Assembly (NCBI GenBank): GCA_034433795.1
Contig: DAOUAE010000002.1
Span: forward strand, 133,939 to 197,938
Source: Chloroflexota bacterium
GTDB taxonomy: Bacteria > Chloroflexota > UBA6077 > FW602-bin22 > DAOUAE01
Length of the DNA: 64,000 bases
Direction: 5' to 3'
Of the stretch, positions 5,257 to 17,939 are shown piece by piece; positions within the stretch are counted from its first letter, which is position 1, and each line of letters begins with the position of its first letter. Position numbers and translations under genes: made by a program. The notes under the pieces are model-generated. The model was not told the DNA's origin. It did no database searches and saw nothing but the letters and a program-made list of their open reading frames with translations.

Positions 5257-7285
<2,029 letters not shown>

Positions 7286-7308
<23 letters not shown>

Positions 7309-8785
7309 GCCGATCGCCCAGGTGGACTGCGACGCCCTGGTCGTCAACCTCTTTGAGAACGAAAAGGTGGACGCCAGTCACCTGCGCGAACTCGATTTCA
7401 TCCTGGACGGCGCCCTCTGTCAGGTGGTCGATCTCAAGGAGCTGAGCGGCAAGCGCCACGAGACGGCCACGGTCCTGACCTCCGGCAAGATCTCGGCTCC
7501 CCGCGTGCTGGTGGTCGGGGCCGGCCCGCGGAGCGAGTTCACCAGCGCCCGGGCCCGCGACCTGGCCGGCGTGGCCGTTCGCCACCTCACCCACCGGGGC
7601 GCCAGCCGGATCGCCTTCGCCCTGGGCGGCGACCTGCCGCCGGCCACCCTGGCGCAGATGATCACCGAGGGAGCGCTCCTCGGGCTCTTCGACCCCGGCC
7701 TCTACAAGACGCGGACCGAGGACCGGACACCGCTGGAGCGACTGATCATCGTTCGCCCGCCGACGCTGACCGACTCCACCCCGCTCGCCGAGGGCGCCCG
7801 GCGCGGCCAGATCATCGCCGAGAGCGTGAACTACGCCCGCCGGATGGCCGCCGAGCCGGCCAACGTCATGACCCCCAGTTTCATGGCCGACTGCGCCCGC
7901 GAGGTCGCCGAACAGGCCGGCCTGGAGGTGCAGGTCTTCACGCAGGCGGACCTGGAGCGCCTGGGCGCCGGGGCCATCCTGGGGGTGGCCCGGGGCAGCG
8001 AGCAACCCCCGGTTCTCATCGCCCTGCGCTACCGCAGCGGCCGGACGAACGGCCCGGTCCTGGGGCTGGTGGGCAAGGGGGTGACATTCGACACCGGCGG
8101 CATCTCCCTGAAACCGGCCGAGCGCATGCACGAGATGAAATACGACATGGCCGGTGGGGCCGCCGTCATCGGGGCCATGCGGGCCATCGGCCTCCTCAAG
8201 CCCGGCCTCGATGTCATCGGGGTCGTGCCGGCGGTGGAGAACATGCCCAGCGGGCGGGCTCTCAAACCCGGCGATATCCTGCGGGCCCTTAACGGCAAGA
8301 CCATCGAGGTGCTGAACACCGACGCCGAAGGGCGTCTGATCCTGGCCGACGCCCTGGTCTACGCCCAGCAGCAGGGCGCCACCCACCTGGTCGACGCCGC
8401 CACCCTCACCGGCGCCATCGTCGTGGCCCTGGGCCATGTAACCACCGGGCTCTTCGGCTTCCCCGACGCCTGGGTCGACCAGGTCCGGGCGGCGGCCGAC
8501 GAGGCCGGCGAACGGGTCTGGCCGTTGCCCCTCTTCGCCGAGTACCGCGACCAGCTGCGGAGCGATATCGCCGACATCGCCAACGTCGGCGGGCGACCGG
8601 CCGGGGCCATCACGGCGGCCATGTTCCTCAAGGAGTTCATCGCCGAGGGGGTAGCCTGGGCCCACCTGGACATCGCCGGCACGGCCTGGACCGACAAGGA
8701 CCAGGCTCACCTGGCCAAGGGCCCGACCGGCGTCGCCGTCCGGACCTTCGTCGCCCTGGCCAGCCGGCTGGCCGGCGGAACCTAA
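7286..8785 (+). CDS. pepA: leucyl aminopeptidase (M17)
   Basis: VGKGVTFDTGG and NTDAEGRLILADAL M17 signatures. ATG 7286 lies 8 nt after AAGGAGG and overlaps the ftsK 3' end by 23 nt. Confidence 0.93.
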
Positions 8786-10307: not shown

Positions 10308-11342
10308 TCACCGCGCCCCCGGCACCGCCCCGCTCAGCCGTCGCCGCGCTATCTGGGCCGCCATTCTGATGGCCTCGATCAGGCTGGTCGGGCTGGCCCG
10401 CCCCTGGCCGGCGATGTCGAACGCCGTTCCGTGGTCGACCGAGGTGCGGATGATCGGCAGACCGATGGTGACGTTCACCCCCCGGTCGAAGCCCAGCATC
10501 TTGACCGGGATGTGCCCCTGATCGTGGTACATCGCCACCACAATATCGAACTCGCCCCGGGCCGCCCGCGGGAAGAGCGTGTCCCCCGGCCAGGGACCGC
10601 TCACCCGCAGGCCCTCGGCCTGGGCGGCGGCGACGGCCGGCGCGATCTCATCGGCGTCCTCGTCGCCGAAGAGCCGGCTCTCGCCAGCGTGCGGGTTGAG
10701 GCCGGCCACGCCGATATGCGGCTCGGCGATCCCCAGGTACTCCGTGGCCGCCTGGTGGGCCAGACGGATGGTCCGCAGCACCCGGTCCTTTTTCACCCGC
10801 TCGATGGCCTGGCGCAGACTGACGTGCGTGCTCACGTGGACGACCCGCAGCCGGTCGGCCACCAGCAGCATCGTGTACTCCCGAGCGCCGGTCAGCGCGC
10901 CCAGCATCTCGGTGTGGCCGGGGTAGGGGTAGCCGGCCAGATGCATCGCCTCTTTGTTGAGGGGAGCGGTGCAGATGGCCTGGACCGCCCCGGCCAGGGC
11001 CAGCCGGGTCGCCACCTGGACCGCCTGGACCGCCGCCGCCCCGGCCCGGGCGTCGACCCGCCCCGGCAGGATCTGGCTGAGGTCAAGGTCGGTGGCCTGG
11101 TAGACGTCAACGATGCCGGGCTGGAAGAGCGCCTCGGCCACCGTCCGGACCGGACGAACAGTGAGCGGGAGCCCCAGCCGCTGGCTCTCGCGCGCCAGAC
11201 AGCCGGCGTCGCCGACGACCAGCGGCCGGCACTCGGCGTAGATCTCAGGCTGGGCCAGCGCCTTGACGATGACCTCCGGCCCGATCCCGGCCGGGTCGCC
11301 CATGGTGATGGCCACAATCGGACGGGTTGCCTCGCTGCTCAT
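10308..11342 (-). CDS. PdxA-family dehydrogenase (PdxA2-like 4-phospho-tetronate dehydrogenase, decarboxylating)
   Basis: PdxA motifs ITMGDPAGIGPE, GYPYPGHTEMLG and MYHDQGHIP. Sits immediately downstream of a DUF1537 kinase. Start is ATG 11342 (GGGAGG upstream) or GTG 11354. Confidence 0.88.
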   Translation of the reverse strand: MSSEATRPIVAITMGDPAGIGPEVIVKALAQPEIYAECRPLVVGDAGCLARESQRLGLPLTVRPVRTVAEALFQPGIVDVYQATDLDLSQILPGRVDARAGAAAVQAVQVATRLALAGAVQAICTAPLNKEAMHLAGYPYPGHTEMLGALTGAREYTMLLVADRLRVVHVSTHVSLRQAIERVKKDRVLRTIRLAHQAATEYLGIAEPHIGVAGLNPHAGESRLFGDEDADEIAPAVAAAQAEGLRVSGPWPGDTLFPRAARGEFDIVVAMYHDQGHIPVKMLGFDRGVNVTIGLPIIRTSVDHGTAFDIAGQGRASPTSLIEAIRMAAQIARRRLSGAVPGAR

Positions 11343-11356
11343 ATCTCCTCCCACCC

Positions 11357-12607
11357 TCAGTCAGCCCCGGCCTCCTGCAGAAACCGGACGGCCAGGCCGA
11401 GCGCCGATGGGGGACCAAAGCCCCCGGCTTTGGTGACAATGGGCAGGCCATCGGCCGCTCCACCGCGCAGCCACCCGGCCGGGAACCCCGGCAGGACGGC
11501 GGCGGTGATGGCGATGGCCTCAGCCCCCAGGGCTCGACAGAGCGCCAGCGCGGTGTCGCCGCCGGTGACCACGACCCCGCCCAGGTTCGGCGGTCCGTAG
11601 CGGACGATCACCCGGGCCGCGACCCGACCGATCACCCACGCCGGGTCGTCGCGGCCCGTCTTCGCAACCGGTGCCGTGGTCGGCGGCCGGGTCGTCAGGA
11701 CGAAGGCCGGGTGCCGGGCCAGCCCCTGGAGCGCGGCCGCCTCCAGCCGCCGCTCCTCGCGGTCGGCGGACCGCCCATCAGGGGTGTAGAGGGCCCAGGG
11801 GAAACCGTGCTGCACCAGGTCGGCCACCTGGAGGCCAGCCTGGGGATGAGCGCTCCCGACGACCACCAGGACCGGCCGGCGGCTGGCCACCCGACGCCGC
11901 TCCGCCATCCCGCCCGGCGCCGGCCCCCAGAGGCGGGCGATCTGCGTCGCCAGACCGGCCGACCCGACGGGCAAAAGGTCGGGCAGCGCCAGGCAGGCCC
12001 GGGCCAGCGCGGCCAGATCGTCGTCGGTCTCGCTGTCGGCGATCACGATCCCGCGGGCCGCCTGCAGGTGCGCGATCAACCGGTCCGGCTGGCGCACCAC
12101 CGCCAGCGGCAGATCGCGGAGCGGGAGAGCCGTCTGCTGGGCGAGCAGCGCGCCGATCGCGGCGGTCCAGACCGGGGTGATAGGATCCCAGCGGAAGGCC
12201 GTTTCATCCACCGGGCGTCCGTCGACCAGCAGCCGACCGGCGACCACCGTCCGGCCCATCGCCGGGAAGGCCGGCGTCAGGCAGGCAGCCCGGAACCCCC
12301 CAGCCGCCAGCGCCGCCTCGACCTCCGCCCCGACGTTACCCCGCATGGTCGAGTCGATCTTCTTGTAGAGGGGCCGACGACCGGCCGGCCGCAGACGGGC
12401 AACGGCCGCCCGGACCGCCCCGGCGGCCGCGGCCGGCGGGAGCGCCCGCGAGCCGGTCGAGAGGGCGACGACGTGGTCGGCGGGCACCGGCCCCTCGGCG
12501 GTCAGCAGCACCAGAGTGGGCCAGCCCTGGAGAGCAAAGGGCAGGGCCGTGTCGGCCGCGCCGGTCAGGTCGTCGGCGATGATCGCTGGCAAAGAACCGG
12601 CGGACAC
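11357..12607 (-). CDS. four-carbon acid-sugar kinase (DUF1537; DtnK/DenK/OtnK family)
   Basis: N-terminal IIADDLTGAADT and C-terminal VVTGGDTA motifs typical of DUF1537 kinases. GTG 12607 follows GGGGAGGGA. Confidence 0.85.
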   Translation of the reverse strand: MSAGSLPAIIADDLTGAADTALPFALQGWPTLVLLTAEGPVPADHVVALSTGSRALPPAAAAGAVRAAVARLRPAGRRPLYKKIDSTMRGNVGAEVEAALAAGGFRAACLTPAFPAMGRTVVAGRLLVDGRPVDETAFRWDPITPVWTAAIGALLAQQTALPLRDLPLAVVRQPDRLIAHLQAARGIVIADSETDDDLAALARACLALPDLLPVGSAGLATQIARLWGPAPGGMAERRRVASRRPVLVVVGSAHPQAGLQVADLVQHGFPWALYTPDGRSADREERRLEAAALQGLARHPAFVLTTRPPTTAPVAKTGRDDPAWVIGRVAARVIVRYGPPNLGGVVVTGGDTALALCRALGAEAIAITAAVLPGFPAGWLRGGAADGLPIVTKAGGFGPPSALGLAVRFLQEAGAD

Positions 12608-12697: not shown

Positions 12698-12726
12698 TTG
12701 CCGCTCGCGCCCCCCCATGCTACAAT
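12698..12726 (+). promoter_or_regulatory. sigma-70-type promoter: TTGCCG, 17-nt spacer, TGCTACAAT
   Basis: -35 TTGCCG at 12698-12703, a 17-nt spacer whose last 3 nt are an extended TGC, and -10 TACAAT at 12721-12726. GGGAGGAG and ATG 12758 follow. Confidence 0.6.
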
Positions 12727-12757
12727 TGCTCCCAGGTGATCGGCAGGGAGGAGAGAG

Positions 12758-13189
12758 ATGCCGCGTCCCATTGATCCGCTGGGTCCGCTGCGACCGCCCG
12801 AGGTCGCCGCCCGATCGGCGGCTGCCCTGCCACGGCCTCCGCGTCCGGCCGCCTCCCAGCCCGAGGAAGCCGGCCCCCGCGCCCCAACACCGGCCAACGC
12901 CCCAGGGCAACGCGTCGCCCAGGCGGTGGCCGAGGCGCGGGAGGCGGCCCGCGCCGCCGGTCAGCGCATCGGTCCGGCGGTGAGCACGGCCGCCCGGACC
13001 GCCAACGGCGCTCTGGAGCGGACCACCACCCCGCCACGGGGGAACCGGCCGGAAGAGACCCCTCCCGCGGGCGGGCCGCCCGCCCGGCCGGAGAACCGTC
13101 CCGGTCCCCCCGCGCCTCAGGCCCGGGTCCTGACCGACCTGCTGGGGCTGACCGAGCCACCGCCCCGGCGCATCGACCTGCGCGCCTGA
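12758..13189 (+). CDS. hypothetical Pro/Ala-rich, probably disordered protein (143 aa)
   Basis: Good promoter, strong RBS GGGAGGAGAGAG and GC3-rich codons argue for real coding. I recognise no domain; there is a central Ala-rich helix and a C-terminal RVLTDLLGL motif. Confidence 0.6.
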   Translation: MPRPIDPLGPLRPPEVAARSAAALPRPPRPAASQPEEAGPRAPTPANAPGQRVAQAVAEAREAARAAGQRIGPAVSTAARTANGALERTTTPPRGNRPEETPPAGGPPARPENRPGPPAPQARVLTDLLGLTEPPPRRIDLRA

Positions 13190-13202
13190 GGCGGAGAAAA
13201 CA

Positions 13203-13231
13203 CCCGCCCCCTCCAGCGGTGGAGGGGCGGG
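13203..13231 (-). terminator. intrinsic terminator hairpin between convergent genes (U-tract on minus strand)
   Basis: CCCGCCCCCTCCA-GCGG-TGGAGGGGCGGG forms a 12-bp GC stem with one bulge. On the minus strand it is followed by GUGUUUUCUCC, downstream of the tyrS-fusion stop at 13292. The stem could also stop the plus-strand gene. Confidence 0.5.
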
Positions 13232-13291
13232 CGGCGCCGTCTGGTCTGGCCGGTCGTTTCTTCGGCGAAGGGAGCCAGGCCGGGACCCTGC

Positions 13292-15238
13292 TCACTCCGC
13301 GGCCGAGCCCGGGGCCGGGCTCAGGCTGATGCGGGCGAACTGACGGCGCCGTCCCCGGATGACCATGCCCTCGCGGACCACCACCCGAGCCCGCGGGTCG
13401 GTGATCCGCTGCTGATCCACCGCCACGCTGCCCTGCTCGATCAGACGCTTGGCCTCGCTCCGGCTGCTGGCCAGCGCGCAGGCGACCAGGAGATCGACCA
13501 GCGCCCACTCCCCGTCGCGCGGCAGGTAGCAGGTCGGCATCTCGGCCGGGATCTCCCGCCGCTGCACCTCGCGCTCGAACCGCTCGGCCGCCTGAGCGGC
13601 CGCCTCGGGGCCATGGAAGAACGTGACGATCTCGTGGGCCAGGCGCTTTTTGAGGAGCATGGGGTTGACCGTGCCGGCCGCCAGCTGGCGGGCCATCTCG
13701 GCCAGCTCGGCCTCCGGCACATCGGTCAGCAGCTCGAAGTACTTCAGGATGAGCTCGTCGCGCAGCGACATGATCTTGCCATACATGTCGTACGGGGGAT
13801 CGGTGACGGCGATCACGTTGCCGTACGACTTGCTCATCTTCCGCCCGTCGGTCCCCTCCAGCAGCGGCACCGTGATAATGAACTTCTCCTTGTTCCTGAG
13901 GTCTTTCAGCAGCGTCCGCCCGCAGAGCATGTTGAACGTCTGGTCGGTCCCGCCCAGTTCGCCGTCCACGTCCAGGGCCACCGAGTCGTAGCCCTGCAGC
14001 AACGGGTAGAGGAACTCGTGCAGAAAGATCGGGCGGTTCTCGGCCAGCCGCCGCTGGAACATCTCCCGCTGGATCATCTGCTGGACCGTGAAGTGGGCGG
14101 CCAGTTCGATGATCTCTCTGGTCCCCATCCGGTCCCACCACTCGCCGTTGTAGCGGAGTTCGACCGGGTTGGTGGGCGAGGTGAAGTCCAGGATTCTGGC
14201 CGCCTGGTCCCGGTAGGTGCGGGCGTTGGCCTCGACCTCCTCGCGGGTCAGCTGGCGTCGGGCCTCGGCCCGCTCGGTCGGGTCGCCGATGCGGGCGGTG
14301 AAGTCGCCGATAAGCAGCGTGATGCGATGGCCCAGGTCCTGCAGCTGTCGCAGTTTGCGCAGGGCCACCGCGTGCCCCAGGTGCAGCTGAGGGCTGGTCG
14401 GGTCCACACCCATGTAGAAGTGCAGCCGTCGCCCCGACCGCAGCGCTCGCTCCAGCTCGGCCCGTGACGGCAGGATCTCCGCCACCCCGCGGGTGAGCAC
14501 CCATTCGATGGCGTCCGGCGCCCGTTCGGGCAGCGAGAGCACGACCTCGGGCCGGGCCTGGTCGACCCGAACCACCGTTGTGCGGGCCCCCAGCCAGCGC
14601 TCGGCCCGGTCGGCCAGCTCGGCTGCGGCCTGCTGGGCCCGGATGTCGTCGAGGTCAGCGAAGGCGTCGATGGGGAAGAAGACCGTTCGGCTCTCCGGCC
14701 GCACCTTGCCGAGCTCACCCATCCGCCAGACCCAGCGCCGGGTCCGCACCATCAGGGCGTCGGCGTAGACGATCTCGCCCGGCGGCACCGGCTGGGCCTC
14801 GCTCTGGCCGAGGGGAACGAAGGTGTCACCAGGCTGACTGAACCGGACCGCGAACGGGCTCCGCAGCCGGTCCAGATCGTGGGCGCCGACCGGGACGAGA
14901 TAGCGCAGGCTGATGGCGTTGGCCAGGTCGACGGCGGCGTTCACCCGTGGCGGGTCGCCCGCCAGCACCCGGCGGACCAGCGCCTCGACCGAGGGGGGAT
15001 ACTGCGCCGGGTCCAGGCCGAGCTGACGCAACGCCTGGTGCCAGGCCCGGATGGTCGGATGGGCGCTCGGCGGATGGTCCTGGAACTGGGCGCGGACGGC
15101 GGCCGCAGTCTCGGTCAGCAACGCCGTGACCTCTGGATGCTCCGGGGCGTTGTGGAGATCGACCGCCAGGACGCCCACCACCACATAGCGCGGGAACCGC
15201 GCGAAGACCTCGGGGGCGACACGGAACACGAAGTCCAT
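13292..15238 (-). CDS. tyrS: fusion protein: N-terminal B3/B4 (PheRS-editing-like) domain + complete tyrosyl-tRNA synthetase
   Basis: aa 1-225 look like stand-alone B3/B4 (COG3382-type) proteins (IRAWHQALRQLGLDP..YPPSVEALVRRVL..VNAAVDLANAISLRYLVPVGAHDLD..GEIVYAD..RRWVWRMG). aa ~242-648 are a Thermus-type TyrRS with HLGH, DFTARIGDP, GGTDQ, KMSKS and a C-terminal S4-like domain. One uninterrupted frame. Confidence 0.88.
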   Translation of the reverse strand: MDFVFRVAPEVFARFPRYVVVGVLAVDLHNAPEHPEVTALLTETAAAVRAQFQDHPPSAHPTIRAWHQALRQLGLDPAQYPPSVEALVRRVLAGDPPRVNAAVDLANAISLRYLVPVGAHDLDRLRSPFAVRFSQPGDTFVPLGQSEAQPVPPGEIVYADALMVRTRRWVWRMGELGKVRPESRTVFFPIDAFADLDDIRAQQAAAELADRAERWLGARTTVVRVDQARPEVVLSLPERAPDAIEWVLTRGVAEILPSRAELERALRSGRRLHFYMGVDPTSPQLHLGHAVALRKLRQLQDLGHRITLLIGDFTARIGDPTERAEARRQLTREEVEANARTYRDQAARILDFTSPTNPVELRYNGEWWDRMGTREIIELAAHFTVQQMIQREMFQRRLAENRPIFLHEFLYPLLQGYDSVALDVDGELGGTDQTFNMLCGRTLLKDLRNKEKFIITVPLLEGTDGRKMSKSYGNVIAVTDPPYDMYGKIMSLRDELILKYFELLTDVPEAELAEMARQLAAGTVNPMLLKKRLAHEIVTFFHGPEAAAQAAERFEREVQRREIPAEMPTCYLPRDGEWALVDLLVACALASSRSEAKRLIEQGSVAVDQQRITDPRARVVVREGMVIRGRRRQFARISLSPAPGSAAE

Positions 15239-15392: not shown

Positions 15393-16016
15393 TCAGCCGG
15401 TGCCGAACAGGCGGTCGCCAGCGTCGCCCAGCCCGGGCACGATGAATCCGCGTTCGTTCAGGCGCTCGTCGATGGCCGCCAGATAGACCTCGACCTCCGG
15501 GTGGGTGGTGGTCAGGCGCTGGAGCCCCTCCGGGGCGGCGATGAGCCCCAGGAACGCGATCTGCCGGACTCCCCAGCGCTTGAGGATGTCCACGGCGGCC
15601 ACGGCCGAGCCACCGGTGGCCAGCATCGGGTCCAGCACCAGACAGCGGTCCACCGTCGGCTGGTCCGGCAGTTTGTTATAGTACGCGACCGGCCGGAGCG
15701 TCCGGTCATCCCGGTAGAGACCGATATGCCAGACCTCGGCGGTCGGCACCACCGACCAGACGCCGTCGACCATCCCCAGCCCGGCCCGCAGGATCGGCAC
15801 CAGGCCGAGGCGTTCGGCCAGAACCTCCCCCCGGGCCGGCGCCAGCGGGGTCTGGACCGTCACCGTGGTCGTTCTGAGCGCGCGGGTCGCCTCGTAGGCG
15901 AGGAGCGCGCTGACCTCGCGCAGGAGTTCGCGGAAGAGTTTCGGCGGGGTCTCAACGCTGCGGAGGAGGGTCAGCTTGTGCTGCACCAGCGGATGCTGGA
16001 GGCAGTGGACCGCCAT
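15393..16016 (-). CDS. upp: uracil phosphoribosyltransferase
   Basis: [21 protein letters not shown] and the PRPP motif [12 protein letters not shown]. 207 aa. Confidence 0.95.
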
Positions 16017-16955
16017 TCAGACCTTCATCCGGGGGTCCAGGGCGTCGCGCAGGGCGTCGCCGAGGAAATTGATGGCCAGAACCGTCAGGAAGATGACCAT
16101 GCCGGGATAGACCGCCAGCAGGGGATTGCGGAACATGTACCCCTGGGCCTCGGAGAGCATATTGCCCAGGCTGGGGTGCGGCGGCGTGATGCCCAGCCCC
16201 AGGAAGCTGAGCGTCGACTCCAGAATGACCCGCTCGCCGAAGCCCAGGGTCGAGGCCACGATGATCGGGGCGAAGGTGTTGGGCACCAGGTGGACCAGGA
16301 TGATCCGGGCCGGCGAGGCCCCGAGGGCCCGGGCCGCCTCGACGAACTCCCGCTCGCGCAGCGAGAGGACCGACCCGTGGACCAGCCGGGCCACCCGCAT
16401 CCAGCCGAAAAGGACCAGGATGATCACGATCACCGCCAGGCTGACGTTCTCGGCGCCGAAGAGGGCTTTCACCCCCTCCATCTCGCGCAGCATCTTCGAC
16501 AGGACCAGCAGCAGCAGGAGCGTCGGCATGGCCAGCATAATATCGGCCGTCCGCATCAGGATGATCTCGACCCACCCCCCGCCGTAGCCGGCGATGGCTC
16601 CCACCGCTGTCCCCACCAGGGCGGTGAGCAGGGTTGAGACCAGGGCCACCGAGAGGGTGACCCGGCTGGCGTACATCAGCCGCGAGAGGATGTCGCGGCC
16701 CAGTTCATCGGTCCCCAGCCAGTGCTGAGCGCTGGGGTAAGCGAACTGGGCGTTGAGGTCGATGGCGGTGGGATCATAGGGGGCCAGCACCGGCGCCAGA
16801 TAGGCGACGATAAAGAGCGCTCCCAGGAGGGCCAGTCCGGCCAGTCCCAGATGATGGCGACGGAAACGGCGCCAGATCAGCGCCCACTGGCTGAGCTCCG
16901 GAAGGGTGAGGACCTCCTCCTCATCGCGCGGATAGGGCTGGACCGCCGTGGCCAT
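16017..16955 (-). CDS. ABC transporter permease, DppC/OppC type
   Basis: Six predicted TM segments with the EAA-type loop FVEAARALGASPARIILVHLVPN. ATG 16955 follows GAGGAGAGAG. Confidence 0.9.
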   Translation of the reverse strand: MATAVQPYPRDEEEVLTLPELSQWALIWRRFRRHHLGLAGLALLGALFIVAYLAPVLAPYDPTAIDLNAQFAYPSAQHWLGTDELGRDILSRLMYASRVTLSVALVSTLLTALVGTAVGAIAGYGGGWVEIILMRTADIMLAMPTLLLLLVLSKMLREMEGVKALFGAENVSLAVIVIILVLFGWMRVARLVHGSVLSLREREFVEAARALGASPARIILVHLVPNTFAPIIVASTLGFGERVILESTLSFLGLGITPPHPSLGNMLSEAQGYMFRNPLLAVYPGMVIFLTVLAINFLGDALRDALDPRMKV

Positions 16956-16964
16956 GCTCTCTCC

Positions 16965-17939
16965 TCAACTGTAACGGATGCGCGGATCAGCCACCGCGTA
17001 GAGAATATCGGCCAGCAGATTTGAGAGAATCACCACACAGGCGGTGATCACCACGATCCCCTGGACCACCGGCCAGTCCGAGGCGAAGACCGCCTGGAAG
17101 AAGACCTGCCCCATGCCCGGCCAGGAGAAGATGAACTCGGTGACCACCGCTCCGCTGACCAGCGCCGGGATCTCCAGTCCGATGATCGTGATGATCGGAA
17201 TAAGGGCGTTGCGCAACCCATGCTTCAGGATGACGACCTGCTCGCGCAGCCCCTTGGCCCGCGCCGTCCGCATGTAATCCTGATTCAGAATCTCCAGCAT
17301 GCTGGAGCGCATGAAGCGGCTCCACTGGGCGACGTTGAAGAGGCTCAGGACCGCCACCGGCAGGATCAGGTGACGCACCCGATCCGCCAGGTCAAAGCCC
17401 ATGCCCGGCGTCATCATCCCGCCGGTGGGCAACTGGAAGGGCGTGTCTTTCAACACCACGGCGAAGATGATAATGAGCATAATGCCGAACCAGAAGGTGG
17501 GCATCGCGATGCCGAAGAACGAGAGGGCGGTGACGACGTAGTCCACCCAGGAGTACTGCCGGAGGGCCGAATAGATGCCGATCGGCAGAGCGATGAGAAG
17601 AGAGAGCAGCAGCGCGGTCCCCATCAGCAGGACCGTGGCCGGCAGCCGCTCGGCGATGACCGTGAGGACGGGCTGGCCATAGGCCACTCCCCAGGAGGTC
17701 CCCCAGTCGCCCACCACCACGTTCCGCAGCCAGGAGAAGTAGCGGATATACCAGGGCTTGTCCAGGCCGATGAGCTGGTTCAGTCGCTCGAGGTGGGCCT
17801 GGCTGACCCGGGGGCTGCCGAAGACGAGGGCGTCGAAGGGGCCCCCGGGCGCCAGGTTGATAAGGAAAAAGACGAAGGCCGAGATGATAAGCAGAAGGAC
17901 GACGGTCTGGATCAGGCGGCGGAGCAGGAACGTCCCCAT
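16965..17939 (-). CDS. ABC transporter permease, DppB/OppB type
   Basis: The MGTFLLRRL.. N-terminus and the loop DYMRTARAKGLREQVVILKHGLRNALIPIIT are typical of DppB/OppB permeases. Confidence 0.9.
   Translation of the reverse strand: MGTFLLRRLIQTVVLLLIISAFVFFLINLAPGGPFDALVFGSPRVSQAHLERLNQLIGLDKPWYIRYFSWLRNVVVGDWGTSWGVAYGQPVLTVIAERLPATVLLMGTALLLSLLIALPIGIYSALRQYSWVDYVVTALSFFGIAMPTFWFGIMLIIIFAVVLKDTPFQLPTGGMMTPGMGFDLADRVRHLILPVAVLSLFNVAQWSRFMRSSMLEILNQDYMRTARAKGLREQVVILKHGLRNALIPIITIIGLEIPALVSGAVVTEFIFSWPGMGQVFFQAVFASDWPVVQGIVVITACVVILSNLLADILYAVADPRIRYS

Follow-up and report, generated by a model that had tools for sequence, protein, structure and literature searches.

A CtdA-like B3/B4 module fused to tyrosyl-tRNA synthetase in Chloroflexota: a candidate cis-acting editing site

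Tyrosyl-tRNA synthetase (TyrRS) is the usual model of a synthetase whose accuracy depends on the selectivity of its active site alone, its only known weakness, that towards D-tyrosine, being left to DTD (D-aminoacyl-tRNA deacylase). The locus described here raises the question of what such an enzyme does with an additional module of a deacylase fold. It lies in a stretch of 64,000 nt from the genome of a Chloroflexota bacterium (GenBank assembly GCA_034433795.1, contig DAOUAE010000002.1, positions 133,939 to 197,938), hereafter called the window. A first-pass annotation made from the letters alone had noted a B3/B4 domain of the type that edits in phenylalanyl-tRNA synthetase (PheRS), fused in frame to a complete TyrRS, and had taken it for a proofreading or tRNA-binding appendage. 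Profile searches, structure models and surveys of relatives were used here for the analysis of this gene. The fusion was found intact in independent assemblies and in many related protein clusters, and we lean towards reading it as a cis-acting post-transfer editing site that would remove a non-cognate amino acid from tRNA(Tyr).

Architecture of the fusion gene

The gene is a single uninterrupted open reading frame (ORF), as had been claimed for it, and is organized as follows (aa, amino acid residues).

13292..15238, minus strand: whole fusion gene, with ATG start, 648 codons and stop (13292-13294)
14534..15238, minus strand: N-terminal CtdA-like B3/B4 module, aa 1-235, delimited by Pfam B3_4, the AlphaFold2 (AF2) model, Foldseek and the alignment of free-standing homologues
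14510..14533, minus strand: short inter-module tether LPERAPDA, aa 236-243, the least conserved segment (pairwise identity 0.41)
13559..14509, minus strand: TyrRS Rossmann-fold catalytic domain, aa 244-560, with HLGH (14372-14383), KMSKS (13826-13840) and the tyrosine-binding residues
13295..13558, minus strand: TyrRS C-terminal S4-like tRNA-binding domain, aa 561-648, matched by Pfam S4 and SYY_C-terminal

A profile search, proposed earlier as a check, matched B3_4, tRNA-synt_1b and S4 in the fusion protein. The B3_4 profile (PF03483) covered aa 66-214 with an E value of 2.3e-23 and 83.1 bits against a gathering threshold of 29.3. Among solved structures, phmmer ranked best CtdA, a free-standing deacylase of canavanyl-tRNA(Arg) (9MKL, 3e-20; 9F7E, 2e-17), and the beta subunit of PheRS (PheRS-beta) followed with 8e-5 to 0.03. 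The AF2 model of aa 1-236 had a predicted local distance difference test score (pLDDT) of 96.6. With this model as query, the top Foldseek matches were again the CtdA structures 9f7e and 9mkl, which superposed over the whole length with template modelling (TM) scores of 0.82-0.86 and a root-mean-square deviation of 2.7-2.9 A; the B3/B4 domains of PheRS-beta ranked behind CtdA with E values of ~5e-10 to 1e-9 and a query-normalised score (TMq) of ~0.54, the Foldseek probability being 1.00 for all CtdA and PheRS-beta B3/B4 matches. The likeness of the N-terminal half to free-standing B3/B4 proteins was thereby borne out, with CtdA as the nearest solved relative. Of the label 'PheRS-editing-type', the B3/B4 fold stands; the nearest kin is CtdA and not PheRS-beta, and the PheRS pocket residues are mostly absent. 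A Tyr_Deacylase (DTD) domain was not detected in the fusion protein by Pfam.

An exhaustive HMMER search of 1.84 billion representative sequences with aa 1-236 as query returned 2963 relatives, most of which are free-standing proteins of ~235 aa whose alignment with the query spans residues 5 to ~234. Since they align over the full module, the fusion consists of an entire protein of the free-standing type, followed by ~8 residues and the TyrRS N-terminus. The model places beta-strands at aa 219-225 and 231-235, and because these strands and the homologue alignment reach that far, the module extends to ~aa 235. The N-terminal B3/4 module of the first-pass annotation is thus retained, its end being moved from ~aa 225 to ~235 and its linker shortened from ~15 aa to ~8.

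The junction was described correctly before as free of ATG codons, with in-frame GTGs at codons 233, 247 and 252 and no obvious Shine-Dalgarno sequence at such GTGs; a fourth GTG is located at codon 222. Across a conservation set of 103 full-length fusion proteins (43-64% identical to the query), no methionine or valine is conserved at the junction, so a conserved internal start is not found in this family. About 20 of the 103, all of them divergent, have 20-50 additional residues within aa 205-250. The GC content at third codon positions (GC3) is ~0.90 over codons 1-225 and 0.92 over the final 405 codons; since it is high in both halves, the coding signal is continuous through the junction in one reading frame. 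The full-length AF2 model is a single compact protein with a pLDDT of 93 and a predicted TM score (pTM) of 0.80. Long ORFs in alternative frames, for example 12720-14504 on the minus strand, overlap the fusion gene, as is expected at such GC content.

Six assemblies from different samples, the window included, carry the ORF unbroken. Among the copies from the five other samples, one (L089) has 100% nucleotide identity to the window gene, and the other four variants have 99.5-99.6%. Protein differences among these close variants are limited to D195G, A228T and F540L; there are 5-8 synonymous and 2-3 non-synonymous differences, counts at which the per-domain ratio of non-synonymous to synonymous rates (dN/dS) is underpowered. 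A frameshift or stop at the junction, the artefact to be feared, was present in none of the five independent assemblies, and the fusion architecture was found in >100 protein clusters. One relative in the cluster P0072 occurs as two products, P0283 (405 aa) and P0285 (251 aa), adjacent on one 201-kb contig; this pair reflects either a frameshift error or a recent gene split.

The claim of a full Thermus-type TyrRS downstream of the tether was confirmed. The NCBIfam tyrS equivalog TIGR00234 matched aa 244-638 with 362.5 bits against a cutoff of 113.8, and Pfam matched tRNA-synt_1b at aa 269-556 (E 1.4e-71), S4 at aa 582-619 (E 1.3e-8) and SYY_C-terminal at aa 565-619. Both class I motifs are present (HLGH, aa 286-289; KMSKS, aa 467-471). 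The TyrRS half is closer to the enzyme of T. thermophilus (1H3E, E 2e-81) than to that of B. stearothermophilus (2TS1, E 1e-43), and the best fold match of the full-length AF2 model was to T. thermophilus TyrRS-tRNA complexes (9sdf/1h3e), with a target-normalised score (TMt) of 0.83. The S4-like domain is alignable with the C-terminal domains of TyrRS from T. thermophilus and from A. baumannii. The residues that bind tyrosine are present as Y275, D319, Y411, Q415, D418 and Q433, which from the alignment to 2TS1 we take to be the equivalents of B. stearothermophilus Y34, D78, Y169, Q173, D176 and Q195; the last five of the six are invariant across the fusion family. No sign of a relaxed or changed amino acid pocket was seen in the motifs and tyrosine-binding residues, and the half is, judged by these features, a canonical TyrRS of the Thermus/TyrZ type that is predicted to tyrosylate tRNA(Tyr).

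Pocket residues and fusion partners

Three segments of the module carry the pocket residues considered here.

14876..14929, minus strand: pocket motif 1, DLANAISLRYLVPVGAHD, aa 104-121, with N107, G118, H120 and D121
14717..14749, minus strand: pocket motif 2, VRTRRWVWRMG, aa 164-174, with T166, V170, M173 and the basic residues R165/R167/R168/R172
14666..14674, minus strand: P189-I190-D191, with P189 and D191 unchanged throughout the fusion family

In the conservation set, D104, P116, G118, H120, D121, T166, R167, W169, R172, P189 and D191 are invariant (103/103), and N107 and R165 are each found in 102/103. Position 173 is variable, with L in 58, Q in 41, M in 2 and E in 2 proteins. The mean pairwise identity is 0.51 for the module, 0.63 for the TyrRS catalytic core and 0.47 for the S4-like domain.

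For CtdA, mutagenesis showed that N105 and G116 are essential and that C166 and Q173 shape specificity (PMC12449066); E118 and E191 are deep-pocket glutamates that are required for activity and likely bind the canavanine guanidinium, and Y104 is catalytically important (PMC12268091). Both catalytic-type residues are kept in the query (N105 to N107, G116 to G118), while the canavanine-binding residues are all replaced: E118 by H120, E191 by D191 (a conservative change), C166 by T166, Y104 by A106 and N170 by V170. Further changes are Q173 to M173 and I189 to P189. The catalytic framework is thus under strong constraint, with residues predicted to read the side chain that are unlike those of CtdA, and the pocket changes argue against specificity for canavanyl-tRNA(Arg).

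Loss of the PheRS editing-pocket residues had been named as a sign of a non-catalytic appendage. The profile alignment to the E. coli PheRS editing domain covered its first half only, with five of its pocket residues; A312, G318 and E334 lie outside. One of the five is kept (N254 as N107) and four are lost (R244 to P97, Y255 to A108, H265 to G118, F267 to H120). PheRS G318 has been structurally aligned with CtdA Q173, which is position 173 in the query, and CtdA, which lacks the same residues, is a robust, fast deacylase (PMC12449066). Because CtdA is active in spite of this pattern, the loss is not a sign of an inactive domain, and this sign does not apply to the module.

A survey of relatives for fused and split genes, as had been suggested, showed that the fusion to TyrRS is recurrent, with >140 clusters in three groups. 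Group A, to which the window gene belongs, combines a TyrZ-type TyrRS with the 'GAHD/RTR' B3/4 subfamily and comprises >100 protein clusters; its named members are metagenome-assembled genomes (MAGs) of Chloroflexota or Dehalococcoidales, annotated plainly as 'tyrosine--tRNA ligase'. In group B (P0154, P0297-P0330; 35 clusters, 49-100% identity to P0154), a TyrS-type TyrRS with the motifs KIGKT/KMGKT and GGNDQW is joined to a different B3/4 subfamily. The small group C (P0344-P0349, P0353, P0215) joins a TyrZ-type TyrRS to the B3/4 subfamily of group B, which is characterized by D120, M/L165, C166 and N189. Named members of groups B and C are Chloroflexi and one Acidobacteriota MAG. Each B3/4 subfamily of the TyrRS fusions also has free-standing members. 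In a rough neighbour-joining tree without support values, the TyrRS-fused modules fell into two B3/4 clades, each interleaved with free-standing proteins, and two modules fused to arginyl-tRNA synthetase (ArgRS) fell among CtdA-like sequences.

This ArgRS fusion, with an N-terminal CtdA-like module, was found in at least 13 clusters, and the relatives of their ArgRS belong to Patescibacteria (P0179, P0416-P0424, P0515, P0519, P0522, P0218, P0212, P0162). In query numbering, the 16 ArgRS-fused modules have Y106 (15/16), E120 (15/16) and N170 (16/16), and mostly C166 and E191 of CtdA as well. Y106, E120 and N170 are found in 0/145 TyrRS-fused modules (Fisher p ~1e-20, with sequences counted without regard to kinship). 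The latter have small residues (Ala/Gly/Ser; in a minority Leu/Val) at position 106, His in group A and Asp in groups B and C at position 120, and Val/Ile, rarely Thr, at position 170. The pocket residues thus go with the synthetase partner. Because the proven substrate of CtdA is an error product of ArgRS, the ArgRS fusion serves as an internal positive control for the TyrRS fusions, and on its pocket residues it predicts an ArgRS that edits in cis against canavanine or a similar analogue. Pfam scans of 20 longer module hits and the homologues of three revealed no synthetase partner besides TyrRS and ArgRS. Other partners were GNAT (P0169, P0266) and tRNA_bind (P0226), and P0162 carries two tandem B3_4 domains together with ArgRS in 1124 aa. 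In P0266 a pocket of the CtdA type stands beside the GNAT acetyltransferase, which recalls a canavanine-selective GNAT whose structure has reportedly been described in one paper; P0266 could be a two-step detoxification protein.

For the distribution of the subfamily, species-representative genomes were scanned with a pattern that demands Gln173 and by this under-samples fused genes, so that its 567 relatives do not give a true ratio of fused to free genes. Among the best 80 of the 567, TyrRS-fused modules were present in five Chloroflexia MAGs, Ca. Chlorohelix, one Dehalococcoidia MAG and one 'Chloroflexota bacterium' close to the window. Free-standing ones among these 80 were present in Thermomicrobium, Thermomicrobiaceae, Brachyspira and many Bacillota (Clostridium carboxidivorans, C. 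drakei, Limosilactobacillus, Ligilactobacillus, Desulfotomaculum, Megasphaera, Oscillospiraceae). In 4 of 67 free-standing loci the B3/4 gene is adjoined by a 152-aa ORF (6996-7454 on the minus strand of L006) that by eye resembles a YbaK/ProX-type editing protein.

Proposed function and its alternatives

The first-pass proposal of a proofreading module gains from the conservation, from the recurrent independent fusions and from the parallel ArgRS fusion, all of which are consistent with such a role; the activity itself we infer. In the favoured mechanism the synthetase core would load tyrosine, and now and then a near-cognate amino acid, onto the A76 2'-OH of tRNA(Tyr), and the aminoacylated CCA end would swing to the B3/4 pocket. 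There the basic RTRRWVWR strand may grip the tRNA 3' end, N107 and the G118 backbone may position the ester and a water molecule, and wrong products would be hydrolysed. L-Tyr-tRNA(Tyr) would be spared by discrimination in the pocket, by protection through the synthetase and EF-Tu, or by both; for CtdA and Arg-tRNA, protection by synthetase and EF-Tu has been reported. From the class rules in PMC7373986 we derive that PheRS, ArgRS and TyrRS, the three synthetases found with B3/4 modules, all acylate the A76 2'-OH, which would fit a common catalytic geometry of B3/4.

If editing is real, our tentative first choice of substrate is a ring-modified L-tyrosine analogue, for example L-DOPA or a halogenated or nitrated tyrosine; D-tyrosine is a less likely candidate, and the same weight is given to something else. 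The replacement of the deep-pocket Glu/Glu pair by His/Asp, the loss of Tyr106 and the change of Asn170 to Val would suit an uncharged aromatic side chain that ends in a polar group, and these changes do not separate D-Tyr from ring-modified analogues. D-Tyr-tRNA(Tyr) is an obvious candidate because TyrRS has no editing domain and, in the Thermus-type enzyme, disfavours D-Tyr only 19-24-fold, correction being left to DTD (PMC6765224). No DTD-like gene was found in ~1 Mb formed by the window and the surveyed loci, with an approximate query and in a share of the genomes far too small to bear on D-Tyr. It is conceivable, though doubtful, that the module, with no kinship to DTD, proofreads for chirality and removes D-tyrosine from tRNA(Tyr) within the synthetase, in which case the hundreds of free-standing 'CtdA-2' proteins of Bacillota and Chloroflexota would form a further, so far unrecognised class of D-aminoacyl-tRNA deacylases.

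Several points weigh against an editing TyrRS. Hydrolysis by the fusion protein, or by any member of its B3/4 subfamily, is deduced from sequence; the reach of the CCA end from the synthetic site to the pocket is predicted; and the statistics that link pocket residues to partners take no account of phylogeny. To edit on TyrRS, the site would have to turn away tyrosine itself. Groups A and B/C differ at the pocket positions 120, 165, 166 and 189, so they perhaps have different substrates. Free-standing B3/4 genes occur without tyrS within 6 kb, and the neighbours in the 67 free-standing loci give no hint of a substrate, genes being shared by at most 7/67 loci and between close relatives only. 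Moreover, the exceptions in the survey, the unfused TyrRS P0097, P0098 and P0102, nest among fused TyrZ lineages, so that the module must at least once have been lost or separated and is dispensable in some lineages. P0097 and P0098, the closest unfused TyrRS genes, have no B3/4 gene alongside.

Among the alternatives, the one that survives best, although it is quite unlikely, is that the module is a non-catalytic appendage, a former deacylase kept for binding or handing over tRNA(Tyr) and raising the affinity for it. EMAP or tRNA_bind domains have a comparable role on other synthetases, B3/4 is generically described as a tRNA-binding domain, the relative P0226 is fused to tRNA_bind, and the conserved basic strand could merely bind RNA. 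However, the small polar residues of the pocket are kept as well (N107 in 102/103 and G118, H120, D121, T166 and D191 in 103/103), the CtdA equivalents of N107, G118, H120 and D191 are needed for hydrolysis, and the closest relatives are free-standing proteins of ~235 aa whose sole known role is catalysis.

Improbable, too, is an active deacylase that works in trans on Tyr-tRNA(Phe) or another mischarged tRNA, for which the fusion would provide co-expression or co-localisation with the translation machinery only. The B3/4 fold of PheRS does remove Tyr and meta-tyrosine (m-Tyr) from tRNA(Phe) (PMC12449066), and the free-standing relatives work without an attached synthetase and are unlinked to tyrS. 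Repeated fusion to two TyrRS subtypes, together with an ArgRS fusion that has the matching canavanine pocket, argues instead that the partner defines the substrate, as does the restriction of synthetase partners to TyrRS and ArgRS in the scanned hits. Hydrolysis of the cognate L-Tyr-tRNA(Tyr), as a regulatory brake or for conditional tRNA recycling, has very little probability. The His/Asp pair deep in the pocket could hold a phenolic OH, and CtdA is weakly active on cognate Arg-tRNA(Arg) in vitro (PMC12449066), but a futile cycle in an essential synthetase would be costly, and its conservation in >140 lineages is unlikely without a regulatory element, of which none is evident. That the fusion is an artefact, in which an error of sequencing or assembly has merged two neighbouring genes or an internal start keeps them apart in vivo, can be dismissed, since the GTG-only junction and the one split copy (405 aa and 251 aa on a single contig) stand against an ORF intact in six assemblies, >140 fusion clusters in three groups, high GC3 across the junction, no conserved start there and a single compact AF2 model (pTM 0.80).

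Genomic setting and comparison with known systems

The fusion gene is preceded by upp and two opp-type ABC permease genes (15393-17939, minus strand) and followed by a gene for an SBD_N/NBD_C four-carbon-acid kinase-like protein and a pdxA-like gene (10308-12607, minus strand). This order is kept in all six close assemblies, and none of the flanking genes has an evident tie to tyrosine or tRNA metabolism. A regulatory RNA for the fusion gene was considered and rejected: in the 64,000-nt window neither a tRNA gene nor an Rfam family at the gathering threshold was found, and the 154-nt gap between the end of upp (15393) and the start of tyrS (15238) contains no T-box leader. Consensus scans of the window gave one promoter-like and three terminator-like matches, zero of them upstream of the fusion gene. 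Just downstream of it, on the opposite strand, lies a Pro/Ala/Arg-rich ORF of 143 aa (12758-13189, plus strand) inside a stretch of 79% GC (12750-13249). It has no Pfam match and is possibly spurious, and gene calling picked it up in six related loci (L086, L087, L089-L091).

The first-pass annotation knew of no described enzyme with this architecture, and no description of B3/4-TyrRS or B3/4-ArgRS fusions was found in the literature searched (CtdA papers, aminoacyl-tRNA synthetase reviews and AARS Online), although papers beyond these may hold one. The domain-sharing table of AARS Online lists Edit-LIV and Edit-AT as the only editing modules, neither of them in TyrRS, and has no B3/B4 entry. 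The fused proteins are already in public databases with precomputed Pfam domains and are labelled only as TyrRS. If the editing function is true, a TyrRS that is conserved and equipped with a hydrolytic module would end, for a whole bacterial phylum, the picture of TyrRS as a synthetase without editing, and it would offer a first lead to the function of the uncharacterised CtdA-2 family. The fusion partners would point to a tRNA system for each B3/4 subfamily, the canavanine type for ArgRS and two others for TyrRS. Together with PheRS, this would make one ancient deacylase fold a repeatedly recruited plug-in proofreading unit. The module could serve against misincorporation of tyrosine analogues or for fidelity engineering in TyrRS-based genetic code expansion.

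With CtdA (9F7E, 9MKL; PMC10018355, PMC12449066, PMC12268091) the module shares the fold over its whole length, the catalytic Asn, the pocket Gly, the RRWxWR strand and the acidic residue at 191. CtdA differs in being a free-standing protein of ~230 aa that acts on tRNA(Arg), whereas the window module is covalently joined to TyrRS and has the canavanine-binding residues replaced. A further comparison is with the 'CtdA-2' clade, which is known from Chloroflexi, Bacillota and archaea, has ~20% identity to CtdA-1 and is predicted to have deacylase activity, its specificity being unstated (PMC12449066). The range of the module (relatives in Thermomicrobia, Chloroflexia, Dehalococcoidia and many Bacillota), its loss of C166 with N105/G116 kept, and its 22-27% identity to CtdA in structural alignment match this clade. 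No synthetase fusion is mentioned for 'CtdA-2' in PMC12449066, whereas the window module is fused to TyrRS.

With the B3/B4 domain of PheRS-beta the module has in common the fold, the Asn (E. coli N254) and a synthetase that acylates the 2'-OH, and PheRS edits post-transfer in cis. There, however, the domain sits within a class II beta subunit of several domains, its R244, Y255, H265 and F267 are not kept in the window module, and CtdA is unable to replace PheRS editing in vivo (PMC12449066). The canonical Thermus/TyrZ-type TyrRS (1H3E, 9SDF, 6BQY) and the window TyrRS share the catalytic core, the HIGH/KMSKS motifs, the tyrosine pocket and the S4-like C-terminal domain; known TyrRS have no editing domain (PMC6765224), whereas the window TyrRS has the N-terminal B3/4 module. 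A similar arrangement is the DTD-like N-terminal editing domain of archaeal threonyl-tRNA synthetase (ThrRS), likewise a free-standing deacylase fold fused to the N-terminus of a synthetase (PMC7373986). DTD itself removes D-Tyr from tRNA(Tyr) and has a fold unrelated to B3/4, so any D-Tyr activity of the module would be analogous and not homologous. Measured against these systems, the deacylase fold and the logic of cis-editing are classified as known, and the TyrRS partner and the predicted specificity as new.

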